Of a stretch of 64,000 nucleotides of DNA, positions 35,854-56,861 are shown one piece after another. The stretch lies in the IMG/VR virus record IMGVR_UViG_3300020185_000024, positions 26,667-90,666 of that record, one strand, 5' to 3'. A program made the position numbers and the translations under genes. Under the pieces are notes generated by a model, which saw only the letters and a list, made by a program, of their open reading frames with translations, was not told the origin of the DNA and did not search any database. The first letter of the stretch is position 1. Every line of letters begins with the position of its first letter. The DNA is from a virus.

Positions 35854-37857
35854 ATGAAACCAAAAAGACTATTCAAATCTTCTACTACTAATTATATGTG
35901 GGCAGGAGGAAATCTACCACAAGAGATTAATTTAGGACAATCTAATGCTCAAGGATTAACTGTATCTAAACCTCAATATGAACATCCTGGAAATGCTGAA
36001 TTAACTCAGTATACAATGGATCCTCAACAAATAGCTAATCAACCTATGGCTACAAACGATGCTCAATTGTTTGGTAATCCAGGAGGCGCAGGAGGAGGTT
36101 CTCCAGCAGGAGGAATTGCAAATGCTGCAGGTTCAGTAGCAGGAGTTATATCAGATTCAATAAAAGTTGATCAACAATCTATGGGTAATGAAACCTTAGG
36201 AACATTTAATTATGGAGATGCAAGCCAAATAACAAATAAATCAGCTCTAAAAGGATTTCAAACAGGAACTAAAATAGGTAGCACCTTTGGTCCTGTAGGA
36301 ACTATAGTAGGTGGAGGAATAGGAGCAATAGCTGGTTCAATATCTGGAGGCAAAGAAGCTAGAAAACAAAGAGATGCTGCTCAAGATGCTTATGACAATG
36401 CTGTAGACAATCGCTTTGATAATATAGATGCTCAAAAAGGAAAATATGGAGGCAGACTTAAACAGTATGGTGATGGAGGAAAGCTTGAAAATGCTGGTAA
36501 AAGAGGTATGATGAAAGCTAAAATAGCTTTAGGTAGTGAATTTGGTAATCCAGCAGCTAGAAGAATGACTAGATATAATCCAGATACTTATACTTTTGAA
36601 GATGGAACAACAGGCACTCATTACATGGGCAGCTACGGTAAACACGCAATTCCAGGTATACAAAAAGTAGATGGTAAAATGCAATTGTTAAATGATCCTA
36701 AAAGAGGTCCTGAAAGTATGGAATTTGAGTCATCTGAAGACGCTGAATACTTTGCAAAAAATTATAAAGATGTTGCTCCTATGATGAGAACTCAATTTAA
36801 AGATGGTGGAGATCTTACTGAATTTAATGGCCAGACCCACGAGAATGGAGGTATTCAACTACCTGCTATGGATGCAGAGGTAGAAGACGGAGAAACTTCT
36901 GTAGATAACTATGTATTCTCAGATTCTTTAAGCTTAAATAAAGATATGATAAAAGATTTAGAACTTCCTAAAGGTTTGACAGGTAAGTCATTCGCAGATG
37001 CTTCTAAACATTTAAATAAAAAATTCCCAAGAGAAAACGATATGTTTGCCAACAAAGCCAAAGAAAGATATTTTGAAAGACTTAAAGCTTTTCAAGAATC
37101 TGTAAGACCTAAAGAGCCTAATGGATTATTCAGAGATGGAGGCTTTTTTAAAGATAGAGCAACTAGACAATCAGATAGAGATGTTGCAAGATGGCAAAAA
37201 GAAAATATAGCCAATAATACTGATCCTATAACTGTTAATGCTCCAAACAATCAACGAAGATTGACTATGGAACCTGGAAAAGCTAATGATGCAATAAATG
37301 GAATTTCTAGAATGGCTCCTATAATTACTTCAGGTATTAACTTAGGTAGAAATATGAAGCCTAATGAAAAATTAGATTTAGATATGTTTAATACTTCAGT
37401 TCCTATTGAAGAGAATTTAATAGACAGAAGTAAAATTTATGATGATATAAATATTTCAGCTAGAGCTGCAGATCAGGGTCTTAGAAATGCTTCTGGAGGA
37501 AGTAGGTCTTCTTATTTAAATAATAGACTAGGATTGTTAGATAGAACTTTATCTGCTCAAACAAACGCTAGAATATCTTCTGATACTGCAGATGCTGCAG
37601 AAAAATCTAGAGTAGCTCAATTAAGATTAAGACAAGATGCTATGAACCAAAGAAACAGATATGGTGTTCAAGTCATTAATGATCAAAATGAAGGTGTTAG
37701 AGAAGGTCTTACTCAAGATAGTATAGCTAATCTAGGCAATCAAATGGGAGACTATGGTACTGAAGGATATAGAAGAAATTCTGTAAACAATATGTACGAT
37801 TATAAAGTTGACAGATATGGTAATGTTTATTATAAAAACAAGAAAAAGAAAGACTAA
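35854..37857 (+). CDS. Virion cargo/ejection protein 1
   Basis: Glycine zipper GPVGTIVGGGIGAIAG, THENGG..EVEDGE..YVFSD motif, Cys-free, follows the muzzle gene. Confidence 0.7.
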   Translation: MKPKRLFKSSTTNYMWAGGNLPQEINLGQSNAQGLTVSKPQYEHPGNAELTQYTMDPQQIANQPMATNDAQLFGNPGGAGGGSPAGGIANAAGSVAGVISDSIKVDQQSMGNETLGTFNYGDASQITNKSALKGFQTGTKIGSTFGPVGTIVGGGIGAIAGSISGGKEARKQRDAAQDAYDNAVDNRFDNIDAQKGKYGGRLKQYGDGGKLENAGKRGMMKAKIALGSEFGNPAARRMTRYNPDTYTFEDGTTGTHYMGSYGKHAIPGIQKVDGKMQLLNDPKRGPESMEFESSEDAEYFAKNYKDVAPMMRTQFKDGGDLTEFNGQTHENGGIQLPAMDAEVEDGETSVDNYVFSDSLSLNKDMIKDLELPKGLTGKSFADASKHLNKKFPRENDMFANKAKERYFERLKAFQESVRPKEPNGLFRDGGFFKDRATRQSDRDVARWQKENIANNTDPITVNAPNNQRRLTMEPGKANDAINGISRMAPIITSGINLGRNMKPNEKLDLDMFNTSVPIEENLIDRSKIYDDINISARAADQGLRNASGGSRSSYLNNRLGLLDRTLSAQTNARISSDTADAAEKSRVAQLRLRQDAMNQRNRYGVQVINDQNEGVREGLTQDSIANLGNQMGDYGTEGYRRNSVNNMYDYKVDRYGNVYYKNKKKKD

Positions 37858-40138: not shown

Positions 40139-43100
40139 ATGAGCAACGAATATATAATGTCAAGCGAAGATGTAAAATTGTTGAACTCTCAAAAAGACTC
40201 AACATCATTTACTCCTAGTTCTTTACAGTCTTCTAAGCCTTTAGATCCAAGTAATTATTTACATCCCCAACAACTTCAATCAACAGAAGATGTTAAACCT
40301 GAGAGTTTGCCTGAGAACGAACTTAATACTGTACCTGATATTGCAGCTCAGGAAGCTCCAAAAAATCTTATTAATACTTCAGGACCAAGTGAAATACCAG
40401 AAGGAGAGAAAGCTCCTATTACAGATTCTGAAAACCCTTTAGATTCTGCAAAAGATTATTCTAGTGTAGAATCTTCTGCAAGCCTAAGAAAAAGCATCAG
40501 CTTATACGAAAGCGCAAATAAAATTAATAGTATAGCTGGAATAGAAGAAAGTCACGGAAAAGATCTTACTTCTATGAGTATAGATGAAGTTATAGCTTTT
40601 CAAAAAAGTAGAGGACAAGCTGCAGGAAAAGCTGCTGGGTTATATCAATTTATGCCTGACACATTAAAAAGAATAGCCAATAAAGTCGGAATAACAGGAG
40701 ACCAAAAATTTGATTTAGAAACTCAAAATAGACTAGCTCATGCTCAATTAGAAGAATTAGGCTTAGACGCTTATCAAAAAGGTCAAATGTCTTTAGAAAA
40801 ATTTGCTAAACGTGTAGCAGGTGTTTGGGCAGCATTTCCAGTTTTAGAAGACACGGTTATTGATGATAGGCATGGGTACAGAGAATTAAAAAGAGGAGAT
40901 TCTTATTATAAAAGTGTAGGAAACAATAAAGCTAATGTGACTCCAGAAGAGTTCATAAAAATGATATCGAATGCTGCTACAGAAGAATCTCAACCTGAAG
41001 AAATTTTAAATCCAGATGGAACTTCTAGATTAGATGATCAACAAAAAGCTAAGTTAAACGAGATATTTGCAATGAATACGGCTCCTACTATGCAAGGAGG
41101 TCATCATTCTTATGTTACTACTGATAAAAAGTACGATAAAGAAGATAATTTTATTAAAGGAGACATAGGAGCTTATAGAGCAGCTAGACAATCTACTTTA
41201 AATAAAGTAGGCTCTACGTTATCTAGAATAGCAGTAAACACTGGCTTATCTGCTGTAGGATATTTAGCTGCTGTAGCAGATATAGAAGATTATAATAATC
41301 AAGACGATGAAGTAGGAAACTTAGTTACTAATACTATGGAAGAATGGAAAGCTTCCTTTAACAAAGACTATGCTCCTATTTACAGAAAATCTAATGAACA
41401 TTTAGCTTTAGGCGATGTTGGATGGTGGTTAGAAAATGGTGCTTCTTTAGTTGAATCTATTGGAGCATTTGCTATTACAGGTGCTGTAACTGGAGGAGCT
41501 GCCTCATGGTTAGCTGGAGTATCTAAATTAGGAGCAATGGGTCAAGCTTTAGCTACATTAGCTACTTCTACAGCGTTAAATCAAGCTGAAGGAGTGACTT
41601 CTGCAGCACAAGTATATAAAGACATATACAAAGCTCAATTACAAAAAGGAATAAGCGTTAAACAAGCTAAACAAATAGCAGCAGATGCAGCAGCTAGAAC
41701 TATAAATGTAAACAGAGCCAACATACTATTAAATCTTACTTCAGCTAATATGTTTGTAGCTGCTAAAGGAGGTATAGCTGGAACTGGAAGACATATAATT
41801 CAAGAAGTTACAAAAAAGAATACTAAAAATAGAATTGTTGGAGAATCTATTCAAGAATTTGCAGAAGAAGAAATTAACCTTATAGCTGATAAAGCAGGTA
41901 GAGCTTTTGGAGAAGGTCGTAGTTATACTACTACTGACATAGTTAATGATTTAAGTACTGCAGAAGCAGTAGAAGCTGGTTTATTAGGAGCTGTTGGTGG
42001 TGCAGGACAAACTGCATTATCTGCAGGAATAGGTAATATAGAATCTAAAGGTTATAAAGGATATGGAGCTTATAAAGGAAAATATGCTAAACAAAGAGAA
42101 AACTTTAAAAAGCAACAAGAAGTTATAAAGCAATTTGAAAGTATTTCTGAAACTGATAACATACCTTCAATGAGCGATGTATTTGCATCTAAAGATGCTA
42201 ATGACAAAGCAAATGTAGAAATTCGAAAAATTGTAAATAAAGCTGAAGAAGAAAACAGAGATCTTTCAGAAGATGAAAAAACAAGTATAAATGATATTTT
42301 AAAAAATAATTTATATCAACAAGCAACTCTAGGATTAAAAACTGGAACTGTTGGAGTACTTGTAGATACTTATGAAAAAATATTAAATCTTTCTGAAGAA
42401 GAAGCAAAGGCTAAAGGACTTAACACAAAACAATCAGACGAAAAAGGTTATTATAAGACTGTTGCTCAAGAAGCATTAGATGATATAGCTGCTGCAGAAA
42501 AACAATATAATAAATCAGGAGAATATGGAGATAACAGAATTCCTGTTACTCTAAATAGAATGACTAGAAATAAAACTTCTAGAGATGTTGATTACCATAT
42601 ATCTGCTTTAGAACAGTTAGAGCAGACAATGGAAGCAGATAAAGAAAAAGGTAAACCTGTAAATGAAGCAGATAAAGCTTCAATTGGCTATCTTAAAGCT
42701 AATATTAAAGTAGAAAATGCCAAATTAGCAATATTAGATGAAGAATATAAAAATTTAACTAATAAAGAAAATGTTAAAACTAAAAGAGATAAAACTTTTT
42801 CTAAAAAAATAGAATCTGAAATAGTTACTGCTGAAGATACAGATTCTGCTGTAGCTACATTAGCTAAAGTAGAAGCTTCTAACTTACCCGAAGAAGATAA
42901 AAATAACCTAAGAGGTAAACTTAATAAAAAAATATCAGAACTTCAAGAAGCTGAAGCTCAAGAAAAGAAAGAAGAAGTAAAAACTGAAACTAAGTCTATA
43001 GTAAATAAAAGATTAGAAAAAATTAGAGCCCAAAATAAAAAGAGGTATGACGAAGCTAAAGAACGTTATGAAAGAGCTACTCAGTCTATAGATTTAAAAG

Positions 43101-46100
43101 GAAATGAAGAATCTAGAAACTCAGCTATACAACAAATACAAGATGCTAAAAAAGAACTAAGAGAGGCTTCTAAAGTATATGAAGAAATTGAAGCTGCTCA
43201 AAGAAATATAAAAGATCTCAGAACTAGGTTAGAAGCTGAAAAACTTAAAAAGCTAATAAAAGAAAAAAAAGAATTAGATAAAGAAAGAAGAAAGTTATTA
43301 AAGCAAAGAAGAAAAGCTGTACAATATGGAAGAGATACTATAGATATTCAAAATAGATTGGATTCTGTAACAGCTAAAATTAAAAATGTTATTAAAGCTT
43401 TAGAAACTATAGCAGAAGCTAAAAAAGAAATATCAAAATTAAAGCAAGAAAAACTTAAAAAACTTCTTCAAAAGAAAAAGAAAGATAGAGAAGATAAGAT
43501 TAAAAAAGTTCAAGAGGCTCAAAAAGCTGCAGATGAATTAATCAACGAAAGATTAGAAAAAGAATATGGAACTTCTGTAAGTATTTTTGATGATATATCA
43601 GATAATCATGTAAGGCTTATAGATATGGCTGAAAATGGAGAAGAGATTCTTCAAAAAGAACTTCCTCAATTAAATGAAGCCATAGACTATTTATATTCTA
43701 TATATAAAAAATTAAACGAATTAAAACTTCCTTCTAATACAAAAGAAAGAATAGAATACAATTTAACATTAGATGCTATATCTGAAATTCAAAAAGAATT
43801 AGATGCATCAATAAGTCACTTAGTAAATTATGGAACTCTCTACAAAACAGGACAAGAACTTCAAAAAATTAAATCTAAAGAGCAGGTTGAAGATGCTAAC
43901 TTTAAATACAAAGAATCAGAAAGAACTGCTGAAGAAACTGAGCAATTAGTAAAAGAATATGATGATTCTATAGAAGAAAAAGAAAACGAAGTCGATGAAC
44001 AATTACAATTGGCTTTAGATTTTCCTGTTGTAGAATTGTCAGAAGACGAAGAATCATCTTCAACAATAGAAGAATCTGTAGACATGGGGTCTTCTCAATT
44101 AGAATTATTTGAAGATTCTGAAGAAGAAGTTGAGCTTTCTCCAAAAGATATTCAAGATGAAGCAGAAGCAGACTCAGATGAAGATAGAGCAAATGCAGCA
44201 TTAGCTGCACTGTCTCCTAGTACAGAATCAGGTCCTATAAAAGCTGATATAGAAGAAAAAGGACAAGAAGAATTAGATATAAAAGCAGGAGACAATGAAG
44301 GATTTTCAGAAGCTTCTATAGGAATACTCATAAATGACACTTCTGTTAAAGTAGATACAACAGTAGATGGTCAAGGAACTACAATAATAAAAGTTAAAAG
44401 CGGTAGTGGAGAAATAATAGGAGCCATTTCCATAGGTAATGAAAAAGATGGCTATGAGGGAATATCTATAAATGTAGCATCAAAATATCAAAGTAAAGGT
44501 ATATCTAAACACTTGTATAACTTAGCGTTAGCTAATGCTAAATCTAGAGGACTTAAAGGATTGTATTCTGTAGATAATACTCTTAAGACAGCAGATAAAA
44601 GTAAATCTTCAAGAAAGAATTTTGTAACAAGTCAGGTTTCACAAGATTCTAAAATGAGAAAAGAAATAGAATCAGAACTTATAAATGAATTAAAAGGGGA
44701 AAAAGGTTCTCCTATTACACTCATAACAGATGTCTCAGATTCTTTTGTGGAGAATGGTGCTACTAAATATGCTGAATTATCTGCTTTAGAACAAGAACAG
44801 TCACAAGAACAATCTGAAGAAGATGTTAATGATGATGTTAATGAAGACTTAGGTTTAGATCCAGAAACAGCAGATGAAATAAGAACTTACGAAGGTGAAA
44901 ATGTTAGCAGTAATGAGCTGATGATTGAGTCTAGTAATGCAAAAGATACTCATCCTGGTTCTAGAGGAGTAGAAGTCAAAAATCATCAAAATGAACAAGC
45001 TTATGAAGAATGGTTGTTTACTCCTGGAAATAAAGTAGGAACTAGAGTAAGAATAAGTATTAACTTTGGAGAAGGAGAAGGACAAACAAATAAAGCATAC
45101 TATCAACAAGGAAGTGTTGCTGACGATAACATTTTTATCAAAGTTGAATTTTTAAATCCTGATGGAACTCCTATAACTGTAGGAGGTGTTCCAGTAATCT
45201 CTAGTATGTGGAATACTAAAAGAGCAGATGGAAGTCCTAGAGAAAATGACCCAGCTTCTCAAATAGCATTAGAAGAACAAAGGGCACTTATATTAGAAAG
45301 ACTTAGACAGGAAGATTCTGTAGAAACTGTAATACAAGAACAGCTTCCTGCTGCTTTTAAAGAAGAAATAGGAGCTAACAATAATATTGCTGAAGTATTT
45401 GATAGCAAAATAGAAGATTTAGAATTTGGAGTTGTTAGAAATGATGGTAACTATGCTACTATACCTGATACAAATGAATTAGACGGTGATTTAGGAGCTT
45501 TTGCTTCTGTCCCTAAAGTTGCAGGTAGATTATATATCAAAATACCTAATAACATGAATGAAACAGTTCCTGCTCTTCTTAATATTAGATTTGTAAATAA
45601 AAAAGAAGCAGATTTCATAATAGATCTTTATAAAGATATTCTTGAAAATCTAGACCAAGAATTTAGAAATTCAGAAATATCTGAAGAATTATGGGAAAGA
45701 TTTGAAGAATTGATTCCTGGAGATATTCAAGATATGTTAGGAGATGTTCCTACTTACGCTAATGTTTTAGATTTTTTAATTTATAATGAAAATGCCAGTA
45801 AGAATCCTGACAAACTTTTGACTACTGATAATGGAGTTTTAAATTTTGGATTAGACAAAGTAAGTGCTCATCAAATAGATGATCAAAGAGCTTCCTTAGT
45901 AGACTTTTTTATTAACACTCAAAGAAGAAGAGTAGATATAGAAAAATTATCTGATCCTAAGTCTTCTTATAGAGAACATATAATAACTCAAAATATATTG
46001 AGTACATCTATAGCTATGGGCCCTGTCAAATTTGAAAGAAGAATTAATACTGACGATGCTATTTATAAAGGTAGCATATATATGAAACCTTTAAGCAATC

Positions 46101-46363
46101 CTAAAGTGAAAAATGCTACAGAGACTAAAGAAGACAAAATAAAATTAGCAGGACAAGAGATTGCTGCAAAACTTCAAGCAGTAAATCCTCCAACAGGTAA
46201 AGAGATTACTAAACCAGTAAAAGAAACAACTAATGATGCTGAAGATTCTTCTGACCCATTAGCAAAGTTTAAAGAAGAAGGTAAAAAAAGAGCTAGACCT
46301 AGCAAAAAAATGCTTAGATTTGGCAAAGATGAGGATCAAAATCCTTGTAAAACAATAAATTAG
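40139..46363 (+). CDS. Giant ejection protein (lysozyme-like domain, membrane-insertion segments, coiled coil, GNAT-like domain)
   Basis: AAGLYQFMPDTL...WAAFP muramidase motif; Gly/Ala-rich hydrophobic helices; YQSKGISKHLY GNAT motif A. Confidence 0.75.
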   Translation: MSNEYIMSSEDVKLLNSQKDSTSFTPSSLQSSKPLDPSNYLHPQQLQSTEDVKPESLPENELNTVPDIAAQEAPKNLINTSGPSEIPEGEKAPITDSENPLDSAKDYSSVESSASLRKSISLYESANKINSIAGIEESHGKDLTSMSIDEVIAFQKSRGQAAGKAAGLYQFMPDTLKRIANKVGITGDQKFDLETQNRLAHAQLEELGLDAYQKGQMSLEKFAKRVAGVWAAFPVLEDTVIDDRHGYRELKRGDSYYKSVGNNKANVTPEEFIKMISNAATEESQPEEILNPDGTSRLDDQQKAKLNEIFAMNTAPTMQGGHHSYVTTDKKYDKEDNFIKGDIGAYRAARQSTLNKVGSTLSRIAVNTGLSAVGYLAAVADIEDYNNQDDEVGNLVTNTMEEWKASFNKDYAPIYRKSNEHLALGDVGWWLENGASLVESIGAFAITGAVTGGAASWLAGVSKLGAMGQALATLATSTALNQAEGVTSAAQVYKDIYKAQLQKGISVKQAKQIAADAAARTINVNRANILLNLTSANMFVAAKGGIAGTGRHIIQEVTKKNTKNRIVGESIQEFAEEEINLIADKAGRAFGEGRSYTTTDIVNDLSTAEAVEAGLLGAVGGAGQTALSAGIGNIESKGYKGYGAYKGKYAKQRENFKKQQEVIKQFESISETDNIPSMSDVFASKDANDKANVEIRKIVNKAEEENRDLSEDEKTSINDILKNNLYQQATLGLKTGTVGVLVDTYEKILNLSEEEAKAKGLNTKQSDEKGYYKTVAQEALDDIAAAEKQYNKSGEYGDNRIPVTLNRMTRNKTSRDVDYHISALEQLEQTMEADKEKGKPVNEADKASIGYLKANIKVENAKLAILDEEYKNLTNKENVKTKRDKTFSKKIESEIVTAEDTDSAVATLAKVEASNLPEEDKNNLRGKLNKKISELQEAEAQEKKEEVKTETKSIVNKRLEKIRAQNKKRYDEAKERYERATQSIDLKGNEESRNSAIQQIQDAKKELREASKVYEEIEAAQRNIKDLRTRLEAEKLKKLIKEKKELDKERRKLLKQRRKAVQYGRDTIDIQNRLDSVTAKIKNVIKALETIAEAKKEISKLKQEKLKKLLQKKKKDREDKIKKVQEAQKAADELINERLEKEYGTSVSIFDDISDNHVRLIDMAENGEEILQKELPQLNEAIDYLYSIYKKLNELKLPSNTKERIEYNLTLDAISEIQKELDASISHLVNYGTLYKTGQELQKIKSKEQVEDANFKYKESERTAEETEQLVKEYDDSIEEKENEVDEQLQLALDFPVVELSEDEESSSTIEESVDMGSSQLELFEDSEEEVELSPKDIQDEAEADSDEDRANAALAALSPSTESGPIKADIEEKGQEELDIKAGDNEGFSEASIGILINDTSVKVDTTVDGQGTTIIKVKSGSGEIIGAISIGNEKDGYEGISINVASKYQSKGISKHLYNLALANAKSRGLKGLYSVDNTLKTADKSKSSRKNFVTSQVSQDSKMRKEIESELINELKGEKGSPITLITDVSDSFVENGATKYAELSALEQEQSQEQSEEDVNDDVNEDLGLDPETADEIRTYEGENVSSNELMIESSNAKDTHPGSRGVEVKNHQNEQAYEEWLFTPGNKVGTRVRISINFGEGEGQTNKAYYQQGSVADDNIFIKVEFLNPDGTPITVGGVPVISSMWNTKRADGSPRENDPASQIALEEQRALILERLRQEDSVETVIQEQLPAAFKEEIGANNNIAEVFDSKIEDLEFGVVRNDGNYATIPDTNELDGDLGAFASVPKVAGRLYIKIPNNMNETVPALLNIRFVNKKEADFIIDLYKDILENLDQEFRNSEISEELWERFEELIPGDIQDMLGDVPTYANVLDFLIYNENASKNPDKLLTTDNGVLNFGLDKVSAHQIDDQRASLVDFFINTQRRRVDIEKLSDPKSSYREHIITQNILSTSIAMGPVKFERRINTDDAIYKGSIYMKPLSNPKVKNATETKEDKIKLAGQEIAAKLQAVNPPTGKEITKPVKETTNDAEDSSDPLAKFKEEGKKRARPSKKMLRFGKDEDQNPCKTIN

Positions 46364-46366
46364 AAT

Positions 46367-49300
46367 ATGGATTGTAAATTAACAAGTCTTCAAGACGAAT
46401 TATTAAAGTATCTTCCTGAAGGTAATGATGCTCAAGAACAATATAACGCATTATTCAGTAATGAATTTAAAGAATGGTATGGAGATTGGCAAGCCCCTGA
46501 TTTTGACAGAAATTATTTAAATGAAGAAGGAGAACCTCTATTGCATAAAGGAGGAATATTTTATTCTGCATTAGATAAAACTCATATACCTATAGTAGGA
46601 GATGTTTATGATAGTTTTACTGCTGGAGAAGTTGAAGATGTAGTAGGTAAATTAGCATATGAAGTAGTAAAGTCAGGTAAAATATTAGATTTTGCTGGAG
46701 ACTTGACTGGTGAAACTGCCAATATTGGAAAAATTATTAACGATTTTATAATAAGTCAAGTCAACACTGCAGAAAGCAATAGAGACAAATATCCTAAAGG
46801 TTCTAAAGAATGGGAAAAATATAATGATGAGCGTGAAGGTTTAGATTTAATTAACGATTATAAAGCAGAATTTAAAGAAAAGGTATTAGACTTTTTAGAA
46901 TCTAGAGGAGTTAAAACTAAAAGTAAAAAAACAGAAGAGTTAGAACAAGAAGTTGTAGACGAATTAGAAACATTAGAATCTGAGGCATTAGAAGCAGTAG
47001 AGTCTGACGGATTAAATCTTACAGAAAGTTTTAGAAAGAACTCTAAAGATAATGCTACAGCTAATATAAAATTATTACTTTCTTTTCTACCTAAAATAGA
47101 AATAACAGAAGATAATAAATTTGTATATGAAAAATCTTCATATTTAAATGGAACTTCTTTTGAAGACTTTAATCATGTATTTAATAAACTTCAAGATGAG
47201 TTGTCTAATCTTGTAACATTAAATGGAGAAAATGGAAAAGTGTTAGACATGTTTGATTTAATGCTAGAAAAAGTAGGAGATCTTTCTGCTACTATGCCTG
47301 TTATGGCAGTATTAAAAGAGAGACTGCGAGAACTACCTGAATATAAAAAGACAGAATTTGTGCAAACTTTTTCTATGAGCAAGTATGATTTTATTACTAC
47401 CCTAGTTTCAGGAAAAGAAGGAAATAGAGTAGTTAAAGTAGGTACTGCTCAACAGTTTTCTGCATCTGATATTATTATAGATGCTTGGAATGTAGGCTTT
47501 GAAGAGACTTCTTCTATAAATATAAGCACTGGCAAATTTAATTCTTCTCTTATTAATAAGCAATTAGAAAGCTTAAACAAAATAAAAAAAGATCTTGAAT
47601 CAAAAAAAATTGATTCTGTAAAGTTAAAAGGGGCAATAGAAGATAGAATATTAGAAGCTTTTGAAAGTATAGGAGTAACTCCAAATAAAAAGGCTTTTAT
47701 GGCTTATATGGGAGCAGATTCTGCTGGAAATATAGAAACTGGAGAATTTAAAAATAAGTTTACTTCTATATTAAATGCTTTTATAAGACTTTCTAATATT
47801 ACCGATGAAAACATTTATGATGAAGATAGAAACATGAACAATGTTCTTAAGGACGTAATGGGCAATGTTTTAAAAGATTTAGCTAAAGAACAAGCTAAAT
47901 TTGAACCTTCCTTGACTGACGCTACTGTATTAGGTAAAGACGGTAATCAATTTTGGGAGTATTCTAAACCTTCTATGATGCATTCTTTGTTATCTCAAAT
48001 ACATAGAGGAGATTATTCTTTGTTAGATGAATTATTAGGACAACCTTATGCTAAAGGATCCAGATGGTTAAATCATATAGATGGCTTAAGAAGGCAAGGA
48101 AAGACTGAAGCTATTAAAAACATTAAGATATCTACATTTTTACAGTTTAAAGAAGAAGGTAAAGGAGACCAGGGAGAAGATTCTAAAAGTATATCTATGC
48201 CTGATTTGTTAGCGGATACTATTAACAAGACTCTTAACCATAGAAAGAATAATCCAAAAGAAGGAATAAGAAATCATAATTCTATTAATAGTACAATGAC
48301 TGCTGCAGATAAGTCTCAGCAACATCATATGGAAGGAATGCCAGCTATTAAATCTAATATTTCTGGAAATCCTTCTGATGTTAAATTCTATAATAAAGAA
48401 GTAGTAGAAACATTTAAAGATTATCTTAGAGATGAACTTAGAAGATATGCTAAAGCTTATAAAGAATTAGACACCTTACCTAAAGAAAAACTTATACTGT
48501 ATTATCATACAGACAAAGATGGAAATGTAAGAGATGAAGACTCCTTATTAGGAAATGCTTTTAATATATATTCTTTTCCAGGAATATTAGAAGCTGTTCC
48601 TGGAATACTTAATTCTGCTAAAGAAGTTATAACAGATTCTCAAGGAGAGCCTTTATTGCCTGATGCAGTAGATGCTTACGTTAAAAAGGCATTATCAGAT
48701 AAAATAGTAGAAACATATAATGCAGCTAAAAAATATCACATAGTAAAAGAAGATGGTTCTAACAATGCTATAGATAAAACTATATTAGCTTCTTATTCTG
48801 GCTCACATAAGACTTTTGCAGCTATTGCTGATTTTACTATAAATTCTCTTGTATCTAATATTGAAGGTACTAAAATGTTTAACGGAGACCCTGGGTTTTA
48901 CAAGAATCCTGCTGACTTTCTTAAACGTATACCTGCTTCTTACATAAACGGACTTACTTTAAGATTAGGTATTAAAGATGCAGAAGGAAAATTCTTAAAA
49001 GATAATGACCATGAATTTAAAGTTGCTGTATTAGCGGCAGTAGAAACTAATCCTTCAGCTTACTTAGATTCTATAACTAAAGCATTTGAAGATGCTGGAT
49101 ATTCTAAAGAAGACATAGATGACCTAAAAAAAGCATATGTTGGAGTGAATGTTACAGATGCTCAAGGATATATAACTCCTGATAGATTTAAATTCCTAAT
49201 GGAAAGATTAGGTAAAGGAACTACTCCAGAGTGGAATAGAATATATGAAAAAGCTACTACTAAAGTAGATGGCAAATGGCAACAATTAACTCCAGAAGAG

Positions 49301-52300
49301 TTTAAAACATTGTCTGCTCAACCTTTAAAAGGTGTATACTTTGGACAGAAAAATGGTATGCCTACTTATTTAAAGTACTCTCAAGCTGTGTTATGGCCTT
49401 CTTTTGTTGAAGGTTCTGCATTAGAGAATCTTAAAAATAAGATGGAAACTGAAAAAGTAGATGAAGCAGTTGTAACTGACGGCATTAAAGTAGGTTTAGT
49501 TCAACCTCAAACTGTACATGATGCAGAAAACAATCTTAGATTACCTGATATTCCTTTAAACACTATTACTTTAGATAATAGAAATTGGAGACTTCAACAA
49601 GATTTGCCTAACAAAGGAATAAAGCAAACGTTATTAGGTTCTCAACTTCAAAAGAACATATTAGCTAATATATCTTTAGATAAAGAATATGGAGACATGT
49701 TAGGACAAGATATTGTAGATGATCTTAATAAGACTATCGCAGAACTTTCTAATAGAGGTGTTGAAGAAGTTCTCGAAAACTTTAAAGTAGATAAAGACGG
49801 AAATGTAGATAGAAGTATATTAGATGAAGTTATAATTAAAGAACTTAAAGAAAAAGGCGGAGCCGATAATTTAATCAAAGCTATAGAAAGAGGTGTTCAG
49901 TATGATGCACTATTTCAACATAGAGATAAAATTCAAAACATATTATTCTCTCATATTAACAAAAGAGTTATTGATATAGCTACTAATGGAGGTTCTTTTA
50001 TACAAATGGCCCCTTTTGGAATAACTGAAAAACTAGCAGATTATGCTGGTGTAAAATGGTTAGTTGAAAAATCTGAATTAAAACCGCCTTTAAAAAATAA
50101 AGATGGTTCTATAAGTAGAGGACAAGTACTAATTCCTCATAATCAGATAGTTAAGCATATTCCTAATTATAGAAATATGTCTTTAGAAGATCTTAATGCT
50201 GCAATAGACCCTGAAGCTCTTAAGCTTATAGGTTATCGTATTCCTAACCAAGGAATGTCTTCTAATGACGCTTTAGAAGTTGCAGGAATATTACCTCCAG
50301 AAATGGGAGATATGGTAGTAGCTTATGGAGAAATCACTGCTAAAACAGGTTCTGATTATGACATTGATAAAATGTACATGATGATTCCTCATATAGAATT
50401 AGTAAATGGAGTAGTCAAAAGAGTAGAATATGATGAATCTTTAAACGAAGAAAAATCTGAAGACTCAGAAGATATTACAATAGATAAGAACTCTAAACAA
50501 GCTTTACAAAACAAGCTTATAACTTTATATGATAAAGTATTAACTGACCCAAAAACTTATGCTGCTTTAATGTCTTCTATAGATGCTGAATTTATGAAAG
50601 ATGATATCAAAAGCTTACTTCCTAATGAAGGAAAATCAGATTTAGATTTATTTGATTCTATAAAACAATTAGAACTTAAAATAGATTTAATGTCAGGTAA
50701 AGCAGGTGTTGGTCAAACAGCTAATCAATTGACAGATCATGCTCTTACTCAAATAGCAGACTTTAAATTAAACGAATATTTAGGAGTAGGACTAACTGAT
50801 GAAAAAGGTCATACAGTTTTTAATCAAGTTAAAAGTGAAAAAGTTCCAGGAAGAGACCCTAAAGATATTACAGTAGTAATGTCAGCTTTTTTGAACGCTT
50901 ATGTAGATATTGCTAAAGATCCTTATGTAGTACAAGGTAATCATAATACTTTTACTGCTAATACAGTATTCATGTTACTTAGAGCTGGAGTTGATTATCA
51001 ATGGGTAAATGCTTTTATAGCTCAACCTATTCTTAAAGATTTAGTAAATGAAACCTTTAACGGTAAAGGTAGAATGGCTCTTAAGCAAAAAGGACCTCAA
51101 GGAGGATATTTATCTGCTTTAGAAGTAGTTAAGAAAAAATGGGAAGAAAAAGTAGGAAAAGATTATGAACATAAAGAGTCTTATAATAAGATATCAAGTA
51201 CTTTTAAAGATGTAAGTCCATTAGAGTATTTAAAAGATACAGCAAAAAGTCCAAATTCTGCTGATCCTAGATATCAGTTAGACGTATTAACAATGTTTGA
51301 AGGTTGGAAAAATATATCTAAATCTTTAAGAGATTCTGTAATAGCTTCTAAAAATGATGTTAATGGAGCAGGCTATGATCTTATTAGTAAACAAATTATA
51401 GAAAACACGAAAGAACAAGTACTAAATGATTCTCGTTTAACAAACTTTTCTAATAAGTTTAAAATGAACGGAAAAAATACTGCTTTAGGAACCTTTTATG
51501 ATAATTCTGTAGGGTTAGCTAACCTTATTACTAATAACATGTTTATAACTGATTCTATAGGCTTTAGAAGAATTTTAAATGAGTTTTCAATAGAACTAGG
51601 TCAAGGAGTATTGACTAATAGAGATTTAGGTAAAAAATTAGAAAAAGAAATATTTGCTTATCTTTATTCTCAAACAGATCTACAAATGCAAGATGAGTCT
51701 ATTATTCCCATGTTTAGAGGAAAAAACTCAGTAGCTAATAATGTATCTAGATTGAAAGAGCATAAAAGATATAAAAATAATCCTTTAATTAAACACCTTC
51801 AAATAAAAAAAGGTCATAAAAAAGATGGATATTCTTATGTTACTATATCTAATACTAAGAATCAACCTAAATATTTTAAAGATTTGCTTTATAAAGGTTG
51901 GTTAGAACTATTAGAAGATCCTGAATTAAGACCTTTTGCTGAAAAACTAGTTAGATATTCTTACTATTCTTCAGGGTTTAAGAAAGGTATAGGAAGTATA
52001 TTTGAACATATACCTAATGAATGGATATTTGGAAATGGTATTAACGATAGAATGAAAGCTTGGAAAAACATTTTAAATAACGACGAAGTGTTAGAAGATT
52101 TAAAAGTTCAAGTTTATAAGCATATGTGGGCAGATAATACTATAGTTCCTTCAGTATCTAAACATGTCCCTAAAAAACTTCCAAAAAACATATCTGCTAA
52201 CAATGCAGGTCATGGAACTGATATTATATTTACTATACCTGAATTTGTAGGTAAATATAAAAAAAATGATCAATGGCCTAGATTTGTAACTAGAAAAATA

Positions 52301-52645
52301 GGTTCTACAGATTATCTTTATAGATTAGCAGGCACAGTTGAAAATGATAACGAGAAAAAGACTGAGCACGCAGTATATGTTAGAACTAACAAATTAGGGT
52401 ACTCTAAAAAAGGTAAAACTATAGTGGAATATGGAAGTGATTCTAAAAATTCTATATTCCCAGAAAATATTGCAATTAAAGAGTCGAAAGTTTATAATGA
52501 ATTTAGAAAAAATCTTAGATTTGTATATAATATAGTTACTCCTCCAAAAACAGTAGTACCTGAAATGAGTGTAGTAGAACCATTTGTAATAGATCATCAA
52601 GAAATGTTAAATAAAGCAGAAGCTAGAAAGAAAAATTGTAAATAA
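46367..52645 (+). CDS. Virion-packaged single-subunit double-psi beta-barrel RNA polymerase (phi14:2 gp66-like)
   Basis: Catalytic loop GSDYDIDK (50354-50368), GYRIPNQG, TDAQGY, KRI and VDIAKDP motifs; 2092 aa. Confidence 0.9.
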   Translation: MDCKLTSLQDELLKYLPEGNDAQEQYNALFSNEFKEWYGDWQAPDFDRNYLNEEGEPLLHKGGIFYSALDKTHIPIVGDVYDSFTAGEVEDVVGKLAYEVVKSGKILDFAGDLTGETANIGKIINDFIISQVNTAESNRDKYPKGSKEWEKYNDEREGLDLINDYKAEFKEKVLDFLESRGVKTKSKKTEELEQEVVDELETLESEALEAVESDGLNLTESFRKNSKDNATANIKLLLSFLPKIEITEDNKFVYEKSSYLNGTSFEDFNHVFNKLQDELSNLVTLNGENGKVLDMFDLMLEKVGDLSATMPVMAVLKERLRELPEYKKTEFVQTFSMSKYDFITTLVSGKEGNRVVKVGTAQQFSASDIIIDAWNVGFEETSSINISTGKFNSSLINKQLESLNKIKKDLESKKIDSVKLKGAIEDRILEAFESIGVTPNKKAFMAYMGADSAGNIETGEFKNKFTSILNAFIRLSNITDENIYDEDRNMNNVLKDVMGNVLKDLAKEQAKFEPSLTDATVLGKDGNQFWEYSKPSMMHSLLSQIHRGDYSLLDELLGQPYAKGSRWLNHIDGLRRQGKTEAIKNIKISTFLQFKEEGKGDQGEDSKSISMPDLLADTINKTLNHRKNNPKEGIRNHNSINSTMTAADKSQQHHMEGMPAIKSNISGNPSDVKFYNKEVVETFKDYLRDELRRYAKAYKELDTLPKEKLILYYHTDKDGNVRDEDSLLGNAFNIYSFPGILEAVPGILNSAKEVITDSQGEPLLPDAVDAYVKKALSDKIVETYNAAKKYHIVKEDGSNNAIDKTILASYSGSHKTFAAIADFTINSLVSNIEGTKMFNGDPGFYKNPADFLKRIPASYINGLTLRLGIKDAEGKFLKDNDHEFKVAVLAAVETNPSAYLDSITKAFEDAGYSKEDIDDLKKAYVGVNVTDAQGYITPDRFKFLMERLGKGTTPEWNRIYEKATTKVDGKWQQLTPEEFKTLSAQPLKGVYFGQKNGMPTYLKYSQAVLWPSFVEGSALENLKNKMETEKVDEAVVTDGIKVGLVQPQTVHDAENNLRLPDIPLNTITLDNRNWRLQQDLPNKGIKQTLLGSQLQKNILANISLDKEYGDMLGQDIVDDLNKTIAELSNRGVEEVLENFKVDKDGNVDRSILDEVIIKELKEKGGADNLIKAIERGVQYDALFQHRDKIQNILFSHINKRVIDIATNGGSFIQMAPFGITEKLADYAGVKWLVEKSELKPPLKNKDGSISRGQVLIPHNQIVKHIPNYRNMSLEDLNAAIDPEALKLIGYRIPNQGMSSNDALEVAGILPPEMGDMVVAYGEITAKTGSDYDIDKMYMMIPHIELVNGVVKRVEYDESLNEEKSEDSEDITIDKNSKQALQNKLITLYDKVLTDPKTYAALMSSIDAEFMKDDIKSLLPNEGKSDLDLFDSIKQLELKIDLMSGKAGVGQTANQLTDHALTQIADFKLNEYLGVGLTDEKGHTVFNQVKSEKVPGRDPKDITVVMSAFLNAYVDIAKDPYVVQGNHNTFTANTVFMLLRAGVDYQWVNAFIAQPILKDLVNETFNGKGRMALKQKGPQGGYLSALEVVKKKWEEKVGKDYEHKESYNKISSTFKDVSPLEYLKDTAKSPNSADPRYQLDVLTMFEGWKNISKSLRDSVIASKNDVNGAGYDLISKQIIENTKEQVLNDSRLTNFSNKFKMNGKNTALGTFYDNSVGLANLITNNMFITDSIGFRRILNEFSIELGQGVLTNRDLGKKLEKEIFAYLYSQTDLQMQDESIIPMFRGKNSVANNVSRLKEHKRYKNNPLIKHLQIKKGHKKDGYSYVTISNTKNQPKYFKDLLYKGWLELLEDPELRPFAEKLVRYSYYSSGFKKGIGSIFEHIPNEWIFGNGINDRMKAWKNILNNDEVLEDLKVQVYKHMWADNTIVPSVSKHVPKKLPKNISANNAGHGTDIIFTIPEFVGKYKKNDQWPRFVTRKIGSTDYLYRLAGTVENDNEKKTEHAVYVRTNKLGYSKKGKTIVEYGSDSKNSIFPENIAIKESKVYNEFRKNLRFVYNIVTPPKTVVPEMSVVEPFVIDHQEMLNKAEARKKNCK

Positions 52646-52646
52646 T

Positions 52647-55600
52647 ATGAGTTGTCCAAATTTAAATATAAGTCCTTTAAAAGAAATTAAAGAAGAGTAT
52701 GGAGAAGATGCTGCATACTTAGCTAATGAAATGCTAACTGAAAATTCATTTAAGGATTGGTATGGCTCTGAAGTTTATCCTTTTGTAGACGCTAATTTAA
52801 GAATAGAAAATTCAATAGGAGAGCATTTTGATTTAGGAAAAAATCTTACATCCAGAGGTTATACCAATAAACTAACTAAATCTGAAACTGTAACAAAGAA
52901 TAAAGATTCTTATGGAGAAGTTTCTAAACAAAATGTTGCTGATATTGATTCTATTTTAGGAAAGTCTAAAAAAAATCTCAACAGTAGAGAAATTTTATCA
53001 AAGTTACATCCTAAGCTAAAAGATCCTTTAATGGAAAAGTTAGCATATATGATGTTGAATAAAGTCGAAGGTAGCGATAATGTAATAATAGAAGAACTAG
53101 AAGATGGACAATATATGGCATTTGATCCAGATACAGATACTGTGCACCTTAATTCTAATATGTTATATGATAATGGTATAGACATGTTCTCTAGTACTTT
53201 TATGCATGAAATGGTGCATAAATATACTGCAAATGCATTGTTTAATCCTAAAAACAAAAGAGAAGAAGCATTTAAATTTCAAATGACTTCTTTATATAAT
53301 ACTGTAAATAAATATTTTTCTAAAGAACAGAAAGAAGAATTTTTTAGAGTATTTGGAGAAGAAGCTTCTGAAGCTGGAGTAAATGTTCATGAATTTGTCA
53401 GCGAAGTAATGACTAATAAGAAGTTCCAAACTGCAGTAAAAGGTATAAAATTTAATGTTTGGGATAGGTTTATAAACTTTGTAACTTCTCTATTTGGAGG
53501 AACAGATTCTTCAAATGTTTACGGAAATGCTGTTGAAGCTATATTAAACCAAGTAGAAAAATATAATTTCTCATATAACTACAATTCAAATAATCAATTA
53601 CAAACTTCAGTGACTTTATATGCTACTACTAAAGAAGCTAAAAAAGAGACTGAAGAAAGTGAATCTAATAAAAGAGCTAAAAAAATAGTAGATAACTTAG
53701 AAGATAGAATAATAACTTTAGAAGATGTTGCAGCAGCAGCTATCAAAAAAATAGATAAAACACTTAACCGACATACTCTTAAGAAAAAAGAAACATTTAG
53801 AAAAAACCTAAAAGATCTTAGAAAAGAACTTGTTAAGTATCAAAAAACAGATACTTTAAAAGCTTTAATGCTATTTAGTCAACGAGTACTTAAACAAAGT
53901 GTAGATGTAGAAAATAAAATGAAGACTGCTATCGAAGAAGGAACTATAAATGATAAACTTTTAATGGATGTTCAAGAATTTTTAGGAGCTTATGATTTAA
54001 TAGATATAATAGTAGAAAAACTTCAAAAAGAACCTTTATCTGAACATTTAACTGCAGAACTTAAAGAAGAAAGTATAAAAGAACTTAGAGAAATAGAGCA
54101 TAAAAGAAAAGATGTTTTAGCTAAAAGAGAAGAATTAGTTAAAGAATCTGTAATAGCTGCACTATCTAAAGAATCTACTTTAGCTGAAGGTAAGTTTAAA
54201 GAAAAATTTGAAAGAGAAGCTAATAGTCAAGGACTAAAAGGAAATCAAAAAATAAAGTATATAGCTGAAAAAATGGAAGCTGCAGAAGAAGAAATTAAAG
54301 ACTATTCTTATAATTTCTTTGAAAGATTGGTTAATATATCTGAAAGTGATTTAAATAGCCTAGAATCTTTAATATTGGATCCAGGCTCATTAAACTCTAC
54401 TACTATTCAAGGAGTAGTTAATATTTTAAACAGAGCTGATTTAAATACTAGAAGATATACTTTAGATCATAGAAGACATATAGCTGAAGCTTTTATTGAA
54501 TATGAAAAAGACCATCCTGAAGGAAATGTAAGTAAGAAGTATGATGCTTTATTAGGAAAAAATGCAGATGGAACAAAAAATGGAAAACTTGTAGGAGAAT
54601 ATAAATATGAATTTTATGAAACTCTTTCTAAATTAAATAGAGCTTACGGAAAAGCTGTAGCTGAATCTGGAAAAAACTCTCCAGAAGCTAAAGCTGCACT
54701 TAAAGACTTAAAATCATGGAGAACTAAAAATGTAACTAAAAGTCCTGATGGATTTTATTTTCCTATGAATAAATGGAAAGATCCTAACTTTAAAAAGTTA
54801 TCAGAATCTGAAAAAAAGTTTTTAGATGTTATTAAAGCTTCTATAGATGAAGCAGATAGAAAATTACCAGATTTTGCAAAATTAGCAAAGTCTCCTCATA
54901 AGTTTGAACCTTCTTGGTATAGTCTTCCTACTATAAGTAAAAGTCAATTAGAAAGAGTTTATGAAGATAAAAAAGGAATGGTTCCTTCTTGGATTAAAGA
55001 TAGTCTTACTAAGCAGGCAGATGATCAAGAAAGAAATGAGTTTGTAGATGAAACTAATTCTGACAATGCTAAATCATTAAGCAAATTAGGATATGAAGAG
55101 ACTATATCTACAGAAACTGGAAGTGAAAGACACGGTGTTCCTGTATTTTTTAGAGGTAACTTAGATGTTTCTCAACAATCTTTTGATTTAGGTACATTAG
55201 CTGTAATGAATGCCCACATGGCAGAGAATTATAAGCAAAAAAGTTTAACTGTTCCTACTTTAGAGTTAATCAAAGAAGTTACTAAAAATAAAGAAGTTTT
55301 AAAAACTGAAGGTCTTACTAAAAAATATTTAATAAATAAATTAAATAAGACAGAATTATTGAAACTTCAAGATAAAGAGTCTAATGAATATAAGGTATTA
55401 AAGTCTATATTAGAAGATAGATTATACGGAGAATCTACTATAGATATGAAAATGTCTGCAAACTTTATGGGAATGAAGATAGACGGTAATAAAGTAGTTA
55501 GTGCTGTAGGTTCATGGACTAGTCAAACTATGTTAGCAATGAACTATTTTGCTGGCGGAGTAAACATATTTCAAGGTAAGGTGCAAAACTTCATAGAAGG

Positions 55601-56819
55601 CGTTGGAGGAAATGTATTTAATAGAGAGCAATTAAGAGGTGCTGAAAAAGAATTTTGGGCAGACAGTCAATCTTGGGTAAAAGACATAGGAAAGCCTCTT
55701 AAAACGTCTAAAACAAACCTTTTAATGGAGCTTTATAATGTCTCTGGAGACTTCGGAGCATTGTCTACAAAATTTGCACAGGATAATAGATTTAAAGCGT
55801 TAATGACTAAGGACATGTTATATTCTACCAGTCATGTTGGAGAATATTATATACAGTCTACTTTAATGTATTCAGTAATGAAGTCTATTAAAGCTATGAA
55901 TAAAAACAAAGAATGGATTAATGCTGAAGGAAAAGTAGTAAAAACTGAAGCAGAAGCTGCGACCTTAGATCAAATGTACACTGCTAAAGACGGTCACATA
56001 GAACCTCATCCTTCATTAGGATTTATCTATAGAAAAGGTCAAGGAGCATCTAAATTTTCAGAAGTAAGAGTAAGTAATCTTATTAAAAAATTATCTGCAG
56101 ATTTACATGGTCAATATGATCCACAAATGCAATCTATACTTCAAAGATATGCTGTTGGTAAATTAGTATACCAATTAAGAAAATGGTTACTAAGAGGTAT
56201 GAAAAGAAGATGGAGAGGTATTAATACTTCTAGAAAAAGTATTGATGAATTAAGAGATATAGATAGATATTGGTCAGAAGACCTTCAACAATTTGAAGAA
56301 GGATACTATACTACAGCCGTAAGATTTATATCTGATCTAACTAAAGCAGGTAAAGAATTTAAGTTAAGCTTACTGTCTACTAATTGGCAACAGTTAACAG
56401 ATGCTGAAAAAGCTAACATTAGAAAAATAACTTCTGAGTTAGCGTTATACGGAATATCATTTATTTCTGCATCTTTGTTAATGGCTTTAGGAGATGATGA
56501 ACCAGATGAAGATACTAAAAATTCTATATTTAGTGCAGCATATTTAGTAAAAAGAACAGCTTCTGAAATAGGATTTTATTGGAACCCTGCAGAATTTTTA
56601 ACTATTATGAGATCTCCAGCAGCCTCTATAAGCATGATAGAAAAAAGTATTCACTTTCTAGGACAACTTTCAGATCCTACAGAATTGTACAAAACAGGAA
56701 GAAGAAAAGGAGAGTATAAACTAGTTAAAGATGTAGAGGATTTAGTTCCTATTATTAGACAGCTTAACAGACATGAAAATATTAGAGAAAGTTTAAGTTA
56801 TATATACAACACTCATTAG
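52647..56819 (+). CDS. Giant ejection protein with N-terminal zincin metallopeptidase domain
   Basis: HEMVH (53205-53219) plus downstream HEFVSE third ligand; C-terminal helical/TM-like region. Confidence 0.75.
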   Translation: MSCPNLNISPLKEIKEEYGEDAAYLANEMLTENSFKDWYGSEVYPFVDANLRIENSIGEHFDLGKNLTSRGYTNKLTKSETVTKNKDSYGEVSKQNVADIDSILGKSKKNLNSREILSKLHPKLKDPLMEKLAYMMLNKVEGSDNVIIEELEDGQYMAFDPDTDTVHLNSNMLYDNGIDMFSSTFMHEMVHKYTANALFNPKNKREEAFKFQMTSLYNTVNKYFSKEQKEEFFRVFGEEASEAGVNVHEFVSEVMTNKKFQTAVKGIKFNVWDRFINFVTSLFGGTDSSNVYGNAVEAILNQVEKYNFSYNYNSNNQLQTSVTLYATTKEAKKETEESESNKRAKKIVDNLEDRIITLEDVAAAAIKKIDKTLNRHTLKKKETFRKNLKDLRKELVKYQKTDTLKALMLFSQRVLKQSVDVENKMKTAIEEGTINDKLLMDVQEFLGAYDLIDIIVEKLQKEPLSEHLTAELKEESIKELREIEHKRKDVLAKREELVKESVIAALSKESTLAEGKFKEKFEREANSQGLKGNQKIKYIAEKMEAAEEEIKDYSYNFFERLVNISESDLNSLESLILDPGSLNSTTIQGVVNILNRADLNTRRYTLDHRRHIAEAFIEYEKDHPEGNVSKKYDALLGKNADGTKNGKLVGEYKYEFYETLSKLNRAYGKAVAESGKNSPEAKAALKDLKSWRTKNVTKSPDGFYFPMNKWKDPNFKKLSESEKKFLDVIKASIDEADRKLPDFAKLAKSPHKFEPSWYSLPTISKSQLERVYEDKKGMVPSWIKDSLTKQADDQERNEFVDETNSDNAKSLSKLGYEETISTETGSERHGVPVFFRGNLDVSQQSFDLGTLAVMNAHMAENYKQKSLTVPTLELIKEVTKNKEVLKTEGLTKKYLINKLNKTELLKLQDKESNEYKVLKSILEDRLYGESTIDMKMSANFMGMKIDGNKVVSAVGSWTSQTMLAMNYFAGGVNIFQGKVQNFIEGVGGNVFNREQLRGAEKEFWADSQSWVKDIGKPLKTSKTNLLMELYNVSGDFGALSTKFAQDNRFKALMTKDMLYSTSHVGEYYIQSTLMYSVMKSIKAMNKNKEWINAEGKVVKTEAEAATLDQMYTAKDGHIEPHPSLGFIYRKGQGASKFSEVRVSNLIKKLSADLHGQYDPQMQSILQRYAVGKLVYQLRKWLLRGMKRRWRGINTSRKSIDELRDIDRYWSEDLQQFEEGYYTTAVRFISDLTKAGKEFKLSLLSTNWQQLTDAEKANIRKITSELALYGISFISASLLMALGDDEPDEDTKNSIFSAAYLVKRTASEIGFYWNPAEFLTIMRSPAASISMIEKSIHFLGQLSDPTELYKTGRRKGEYKLVKDVEDLVPIIRQLNRHENIRESLSYIYNTH

Positions 56820-56826
56820 AAAGTCT

Positions 56827-56861
56827 AAAAAAAAGAGAGGGATTTATTCCCTACTCTTTTA
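56827..56861. terminator. Bidirectional terminator between convergent operons
   Basis: A8-GAGAGGGA-ttta-TTCCCTACTC-T5 hairpin flanked by A- and T-runs. Confidence 0.75.

Follow-up and report, generated by a model that had tools for sequence, protein, structure and literature searches.

Solitary cysteines on the facing ends of three giant ejection proteins suggest a head-to-tail disulfide chain in a crAss-like phage

The cargo block and its four cysteines

The stretch analysed here (the window) comprises 64,000 nucleotides (nt) of the IMG/VR virus record IMGVR_UViG_3300020185_000024, positions 26,667 to 90,666; the whole record measures 90.7 kb, with a completeness estimate of 92%. The window is AT-rich (31.7% G+C), and its genes for structural and cargo proteins are those of a crAss-like phage. 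Among named phages, Cellulophaga phage phi14:2 comes closest (~31% identity), and the cargo block seen here belongs to a crAss-like relative of it. The genes stand in the order muzzle, cargo 1, cargo 2, P1, virion RNA polymerase (P2) and P3, and the cysteines at the ends of the last three proteins, all of them giant, are the subject of the present analysis.

P1 (plus strand, 40139..46363; 2074 amino acids, aa) is a giant cargo protein associated with the RNA polymerase (RNAP) and is the positional counterpart of phi14:2 g067. P2 (plus strand, 46367..52645; 2092 aa) is the virion RNAP, recognized by phmmer against phi14:2 gp66 (PDB 6VR4, E 1.5e-258) and by its DFDID catalytic motif, in which D1330, D1332 and D1334 do not vary across alignment A1 and which has the DFDxD form of two-barrel virion RNAPs. 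P3 (plus strand, 52647..56819; 1390 aa) is a giant cargo protein homologous to phi14:2 g065 (BLASTP to L010 g065, E 4e-150; L numbers denote the loci and genomes of the comparison).

A programmed count finds four cysteines in the three proteins together, all with codons on the plus strand. At junction 1, the donor end is C2070 of P1 (codon TGT, 46346..46348), four residues from the C-terminus, and the acceptor end is C3 of P2 (46373..46375); at junction 2, the donor end is C2091 of P2 (52637..52639), one residue from the C-terminus, and the acceptor end is C3 of P3 (52653..52655). C2070 is the sole cysteine of P1 and C3 that of P3, so the outer ends of the series, the N-terminus of P1 and the C-terminus of P3, have none. 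The count is 0 also in the two cargo proteins upstream (667 and 758 aa). All of this agrees exactly with the original prediction, made earlier from the letters of this DNA, which had placed just these four cysteines at these nucleotide positions and had described the outer ends and the upstream cargo as cysteine-free.

Over the 37 window open reading frames (ORFs) of at least 150 aa, cysteine averages 0.62% (120 of 19,283 residues; the 37 come from 40 listed ORFs, three antisense ones inside longer ORFs being left out). If four cysteines were placed at random, the probability of one landing within 5 residues of each of the four inner termini would be ~1.6e-11; because this figure is post hoc, the weight is placed on the comparison with relatives. 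Selection has removed every cysteine but four from ~7,000 residues of protein predicted to be packaged and ejected. The packaging itself is seen in relatives: the accessible text on crAss001 reports its cargo proteins in the virion by mass spectrometry (PMC10172136), and the record notes of phi14:2 state the same for its own.

Upstream of P1 lie the crassvirus muzzle protein (31848-35747; Pfam crAss_MUZ, E 8.6e-142), cargo protein 1 (plus strand, 35854..37857; the 667-aa protein, Pfam crAss_CARG1, E 2e-11) and a candidate cargo protein 2 (plus strand, 37857..40133; 758 aa), which was assigned to no Pfam and no PHROG family and is recognized by BLASTP matches to the ORF that relatives have at this position. 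The synteny from the muzzle to the giant proteins is common to the window, phi14:2 and the IMG/VR loci. P1, P2 and P3 were assigned to no family in the PHROGs search, and megablast of window positions 45000-54000 against the phage collection gave no match. Residues 1413-1477 of P1 (44375-44569) form a GNAT domain (Pfam Acetyltransf_1, E 3.7e-05, above cut-off); P3 has a weak SprT-like zincin match in Pfam (E 0.0084, below cut-off), and an HExxH stretch is seen in the alignment of the relatives L017 and L014.

Two small ORFs of the window are rich in cysteine, one directly after P3 (minus strand, 56859-57446; 12 cysteines in 195 aa, with a weak DnaJ CXXCXGXG-type match, E 0.0031, below cut-off) and one at 14605-15168 on the plus strand (11 in 187 aa). 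At 46361-46369, TAG and a single AAT codon separate P1 from P2, which are in frame, and read-through would yield a P1-P2 fusion. TAG is a rare stop here, ending three of the 37 tabulated ORFs, P1 and P3 among them. No transfer RNA gene was found in the window, and the junction gaps in relatives obey no frame rule.

Conservation, fusion and fission among relatives

Two scans of IMG/VR gave 84 loci of 25-35% identity, the best 80 of 300 relatives being taken from one scan, and P1, P2 and P3 were mapped in these loci by BLASTP. Dereplication at 90% identity of a 510-aa polymerase core left 68 lineages, the window included, with 17 near-identical loci out of the counts (L012, L013, L022, L025, L027, L030, L031, L033, L043, L056, L058, L060, L063, L068, L071, L078 and L085). 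The counts of cysteine codons and of neighbouring residues leave out L010 in place of L013, and alignments A2-A5 are also without L006, L010 and, for junction 2, L034. A junction was counted as carrying the pair when a cysteine lay within 6 residues of the upstream C-end and another at position 2-7 of the downstream protein.

Cysteines stand on both facing ends at 52 of 54 split P1/P2 junctions and at 60 of 61 split P2/P3 junctions. The single P2/P3 exception, L034, has three unrelated cysteine-rich genes inserted, and its true P3 further downstream has a cysteine at position 3. No first member has a cysteine in its first 10 residues (0/55) and no last member in its last 10 (0/60). The equivalent four cysteines are present in phi14:2, at ~30% identity: g067 has only C1797 (of 1797), g066 has C3 and C2179 (of 2180), and g065 has C3. 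Over 293,516 residues, the module proteins hold 198 terminal and 29 internal cysteines (0.099 internal per 1000). The corresponding background is 14.0 per 1000, taken from the minus strand of these loci, where the ORFs are mechanical ones of at least 150 aa and some may not be genes. The 96 upstream cargo-like ORFs hold 11 cysteines in 61,801 residues.

In the terminal alignments (150 aa at the C-end of P2, 60 aa at its N-end, and 150 or 60 aa at the N-end of the protein that follows), the mean column identity is 10-23%, and the cysteine is the sole invariant column in each, that is, over 53 P2 N-termini, 59 P2 C-terminal stretches of 150 aa and 59 P3 N-terminal stretches. A separate observation concerns an internal cysteine that recurs near P2 residues 1315-1334, by the catalytic motif, in several otherwise cysteine-free polymerases (L012/L017/L022/L043, L036 and L070/L071; C1334 in crAss001 gp50).

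Where the genes are fused, both members of the pair are absent from the join, and where the proteins are separate they are kept: no cysteine is found at the join in 6/6 fused P1/P2 and 3/3 fused P2/P3 junctions. P2 and P3 form a single ORF of ~3520 aa in L014, L023 and near copies, with an N-terminal cysteine as the only one, and the P1 upstream of it keeps its C-terminal cysteine. P1 and P2 form a single ORF in L044, L046 (with L056 and L060), L055, L072 and L079; the join is cysteine-free in these fusions, and cysteines are kept at the C-end and at the N-end of the next protein. The L079 fusion has one cysteine in 5322 aa, at its C-end, and L032, in which all three proteins are fused into 4726 aa, has 0. 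Three internal cysteines occur in the L055 fusion, the nearest of them ~142 residues from the estimated join, which is the closest of any fused join. In L044, an extra protein of 1167 aa stands between the fused P1+P2 and P3, and it has cysteines at both ends (terminal positions N4 and C-1). Comparison of the fused L014 with the split L017 shows that the cysteine-bearing tails are replaced by ~116 non-homologous residues.

This matched loss and gain of cysteines with fusion identifies the partners as the C-end of P1 with the N-end of P2, and the C-end of P2 with the N-end of P3. The original prediction had looked to orthologues for conservation of the terminal cysteines and for their disappearance where the genes are fused, and both were borne out. 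On a tree of the 68 cores (IQ-TREE, quick search, LG+G4), the minimum number of changes is four at P1/P2 and two at P2/P3; independent pairs on well-supported branches number 2 + 2, all in the predicted direction.

The pattern reaches Suoliviridae, Intestiviridae and Flavobacterium phage Fpv3. In the Suoliviridae (cr50_1, cr1_1, cr4_1, cr115_1, cr118_1, cr130_1 and cr131_1), P1 and P2 are fused into proteins of 4.4-5.8 thousand residues with a cysteine 1-4 residues from the end, and P3 has one at position 3-5; in cr10_1 the last cysteine is 10 residues from the end, and P3 lies past the end of the linear record. Among Intestiviridae, p-crAssphage gp45 (C-1) is followed by gp44 (N3), and cr11_1 is alike. 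In crAss002, gp32 has its cysteine at C-1, and the first cysteine of gp33 is at 35 from the annotated start, though the Met-Ser-Cys at 33-35 points to a true start further in. In Fpv3, the sole cysteine of a 4287-aa protein is next to last, and the following protein has one at position 3. Apart from the termini, the annotated cargo genes of cr4_1, cr115_1, cr131_1 and cr130_1 (L088, L089, L092 and L093) contain 6-80 in-frame stops under table 11, which indicates that a stop codon is translated as sense in their late genes; the cargo proteins of these phages also hold more internal cysteines.

The proposed disulfide link and competing explanations

Single-chain AlphaFold2 models were computed from 59-sequence alignments. 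In the model of the P2 C-end, which covers the last 150 residues, the cysteine comes after a short terminal helix (residues 135-147; predicted local distance difference test, pLDDT, ~81) that sits on a low-confidence linker of ~50 residues. In that of the P3 N-end, it stands just before a helical hairpin modelled with confidence (residues 9-32, pLDDT 85-94); a low-confidence stretch of ~60 residues comes after the hairpin. The N-terminal stretches of P2 and P3 are weakly alike (hhalign probability 82%, E 1e-5, 23 columns). The small handles on flexible tethers predicted by these models would fit a near-linear chain or a small docked staple alike.

A bond of this kind has been seen in cyanophage A4 (A-4L, Saffermanviridae), a podophage. 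According to the accessible text of the report, cryo-electron microscopy of the virion shows a disulfide from Cys1715 of gp27 to Cys5 of gp26, which stabilizes a C-terminal helix docked in a cleft of the following protein, within an ordered fivefold core; that text treats the bond as a detail of the structure rather than a general principle (PMC12002296). In the Anabaena phage A-4L genome, Cys1715 is the only cysteine of gp27 (1717 aa) and Cys5 the only one of gp26 (1114 aa), gp29 has none, and gp27 is encoded just upstream of gp26. The A4 pre-ejectosome is like the window in that consecutive ejection proteins have their sole cysteines on facing ends; it is unlike the window in having one link and no chain, no virion RNAP, and the bond in an ordered fivefold core. 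BLASTP of A-4L gp26-gp29 against the five cargo proteins of the window gave a best E of 0.37; what the two systems share is the signature and probably the mechanism, not a protein family.

The homologues of the window proteins in phi14:2 (g067-g066-g065) and crAss001 (gp47-gp50-gp49) have equivalent roles and share the terminal-cysteine pattern. Virions of crAss001 contain intermolecular disulfides (gp57 dimer, tail hubs and R1-R2); the accessible text of that paper describes disulfides only for gp57 and tail parts and makes no mention of cysteine (PMC10172136). The phi14:2 preprint, in its accessible part, mentions neither cysteine nor disulfide, and suggests cleavage of fused forms and not joining of split forms. 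Recombinant phi14:2 gp66 was purified and was active in dithiothreitol, so the reduced, free polymerase is functional.

The general premise of the original prediction that ejected proteins are poor in cysteine holds for coliphage N4 (L098), whose gp50 (the virion RNAP), gp51 and gp52, of 3500, 644 and 150 aa, are all cysteine-free; the N4 major head protein is also cysteine-free, and the N4 DNA polymerase has 12 cysteines. N4 is like the crassviruses in ejecting a giant virion RNAP via a narrow tail, and its polymerase is without cysteine as is the fully fused L032; it is unlike the window in that the polymerase fold is unrelated, according to the accessible text of the N4 paper, which does not mention a terminal-cysteine linkage (PMC13434306). 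Since the N4 polymerase is one chain, junction cysteines are neither needed nor present.

We consider it probable that the facing terminal cysteines form head-to-tail disulfides in the virion, giving a linear P1-S-S-P2-S-S-P3 chain. This reading draws on two conserved, covarying and solitary thiols on facing ends, for which a disulfide would be the simplest chemistry, and on the A4 bond, the crAss001 virion disulfides and the cysteine-free single-chain N4. The original prediction had proposed disulfides linking the three proteins in gene order, with a hypothetical passage through the tail in fixed order and release by reduction. It is supported in part: conservation and covariation with fusion uphold the pairing of the facing ends, and A4 offers a precedent for the bond.

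The pattern could in principle be due to chance, or to a nucleotide-level junction signal (translational coupling, a promoter or a terminator) that happens to encode cysteine, and such a signal would suit the TGTAAA found at three of the four cysteine sites of the window and the single frame of P1 and P2 with TAG plus one codon between. However, the window has 47 copies of TGTAAA on one strand and 46 on the other, and in crAss001 the gp47 gene lies on the strand opposite to gp50 (C5, C1334 and C2404 of 2412) and gp49 (C5), so that its C-end adjoins no partner gene; far from gp50, gp47 nevertheless keeps its C-terminal cysteine (2339 of 2341, its only one). More than a dozen loci keep the pairs with 350-714 nt of intergenic DNA between the genes, TGC is used (21 codons) as well as TGT (208), and the flanking residues vary. 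A natural negative control is provided by L004, L077, L078 and L085, whose RNAP genes are interrupted by 249-943 nt at precisely the DFDID motif: these intron-like breaks make no separate proteins and carry no cysteine. Two pieces of the Rfam group I intron model match, in order, the inserts of L004 (14002-14933) and L077 (11654-12597), with E values of ~2e-6 and 6e-4 that fall short of the gathering score. The DNA-motif explanation was rejected on the strand of gp47, the long gaps, the use of TGC, the varied flanks and the cysteine-free intron breaks; we assign chance or a nucleotide signal a negligible probability, and the terminal-cysteine signal, judged from the sequences, acts at the protein level. 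A very improbable case is also that of cysteines not mutually paired, each binding some other partner (a homodimer, the portal or another virion protein). Apparently unpaired terminal cysteines on other cargo proteins in Intestiviridae and Fpv3, and the one N-terminal cysteine too many in L006, would fit it. Against this, the P2+P3 fusion loses exactly the P2 C-end and P3 N-end cysteines while those of the P1 C-end and P2 N-end stay, P1+P2 fusions show the converse, and the full fusion has none; independent partners are unlikely since they would not be lost together in this way.

Another possibility is that the disulfides are real but serve assembly, stapling a pre-formed cargo complex, enforcing 1:1:1 packing and holding it in the capsid as in the A4 pre-ejectosome, so that exit order and release by reduction would be side effects or absent. 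The A4 bond, with its docked C-terminal helix in the accessible description (PMC12002296), is a precedent for such a role, and the modelled terminal helix by the P2 cysteine and the hairpin by the P3 cysteine could dock together. The terminal regions are hypervariable except for the cysteine, however, which argues against a conserved docking interface; fused relatives have the tails replaced by the non-homologous stretch of ~116 aa, the cargo is not ordered in the crAss001 maps as described in the accessible text (PMC10172136), and cysteines 0-6 residues from the ends better suit a near-linear chain than a buried staple. Taken as a whole, this assembly role, including the incidental or absent part of order and reduction, appears unlikely to us. 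Less likely still, to the point of being improbable, is a bridging metal ion or another thiol-based cross-link between the facing cysteines. Covariation shows partnership and not chemistry, and a histidine precedes the cysteine in some lineages (e.g., L007-L009, cr118_1 and cr130_1); two thiolates alone would be a poor metal site, though, no other ligand column is conserved, and the sole solved case of the signature, A4, is a disulfide in the accessible account. Lysine, moreover, is the commonest neighbour, following 33 of 117 N-terminal and 41 of 112 C-terminal cysteines. As a matter of general chemistry, a neighbouring lysine favours a reactive thiolate.

Several observations weigh against the disulfide chain or its ejection role. 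The fusion and fission events are few, and a sign test on them cannot reach 0.05. The two P1/P2 exceptions have the P1 cysteine 11 (L024) or 31 (L041) residues from the end, and L006 has an 871-aa ORF with cysteines at both ends (N3), preceded by ORFs of 1943 and 1161 aa without a C-terminal cysteine, an arrangement that breaks the rule. The apparently unpaired terminal cysteines are those of p-crAssphage gp47 (C-1), crAss002 gp30 (C-7) and a 598-aa Fpv3 protein (N5). The fused protein of cr130_1 and cr131_1 has 26-27 cysteines, and with many internal cysteines in some Suoliviridae the purge is not universal. The A4 bond lies in a folded, ordered core in the accessible description and so gives no support for an unfolded thread; since it staples that core, the role may be structural. 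The cargo proteins are unresolved in the crAss001 reconstruction, as its accessible text has it (PMC10172136). No thioredoxin or glutaredoxin was found in the 90.7-kb record of the phage, so oxidation would be spontaneous after lysis or host-dependent. The cytoplasm is reducing, and gut crassviruses live without oxygen. A search for Erv1/Alr thiol oxidases gave no match in control genomes either and is hence uninformative.

Some further details of these genomes may be recorded. In the long-branch relative L006 (7448-19442), the polymerase is cut after the DFDID motif, the 1943-aa ORF has an extra tail of ~520 aa, and the 1161-aa ORF, which belongs to no known family, shares 8 nt with it; Pfam gave nothing usable on the odd L006 ORFs or on the extra L044 protein. 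The RNAP gene of cr131_1 (L092:15383-16178) is likewise interrupted at DFDID, with a 242-aa ORF in the gap. In the p-crAssphage record (L094, 28978-30245), two genes within a few kb of the cargo block are annotated as thioredoxins, gp39 as putative and gp37 as truncated. A split intein or a ligation was rejected by reasoning, because cysteines 0-6 residues from the ends leave no room for intein halves.

Proposed mechanism and implications

In the proposed mechanism, each C-terminal cysteine would bond the N-terminal cysteine of the next protein in the virion, with an N-to-C chain polarity as in the single polyprotein encoded by some relatives, and the outer ends without cysteine would make the chain stop at a defined length. 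Because the cytoplasm is reducing, the bond would form after assembly or lysis. It would keep the three proteins together and ordered during packaging or ejection, and host cytoplasmic thiol reductases would then open it and release the free polymerase. The scarcity of other cysteines fits the need to avoid wrong cross-links in dense cargo that passes a narrow tail. AB toxins such as diphtheria toxin and the clostridial neurotoxins offer a functional parallel, if the disulfide reading is right: an interchain disulfide holds their chains across membrane passage, and cytosolic reductases open the bond. There is no homology, and the toxin chains come from one cleaved precursor, whereas the window chains are separate gene products that would be joined.

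More tentatively, and with some doubt on our part, terminal cysteine pairs may serve podophages generally as a modular device for coupling any number of separately encoded ejection proteins, producing a head-to-tail pseudo-polyprotein that would run through the tail as a single thread, in gene order, until host thiol reductases uncouple it. If that were true, fission and fusion would be nearly neutral, a new member would need just a cysteine at each end, the other cysteines would have been purged to keep the thread unbranched, and the presence of the device in Crassvirales and in the unrelated A4 lineage would make it ancient or convergent.

One such bond is already in print, for A4, but not the proposed chain, the fusion/fission rule or the cysteine purge across Crassvirales. 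No relevant paper was found by full-text searches on cargo-protein cysteines or disulfides in crassviruses, the disulfide table of the crAss001 paper (Extended Data Table 2, PMC10172136) being known by its legend only.

How several megadaltons of giant proteins of crassviruses and other podophages pass a narrow tail, and in what order, is called open in the accessible texts of the crAss001 (PMC10172136) and N4 (PMC13434306) papers. A conserved chemical tether is a concrete hypothesis for it, cheaply testable in cultured phi14:2 and crAss001. For annotation, the finding supplies a rule by which a cysteine pair marks a true protein boundary, and a break without a pair marks an intron or a fusion. 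If true, the tether would explain why the cargo proteins are nearly free of cysteine, why their genes split and fuse freely in evolution, and how an active polymerase is released without a protease.

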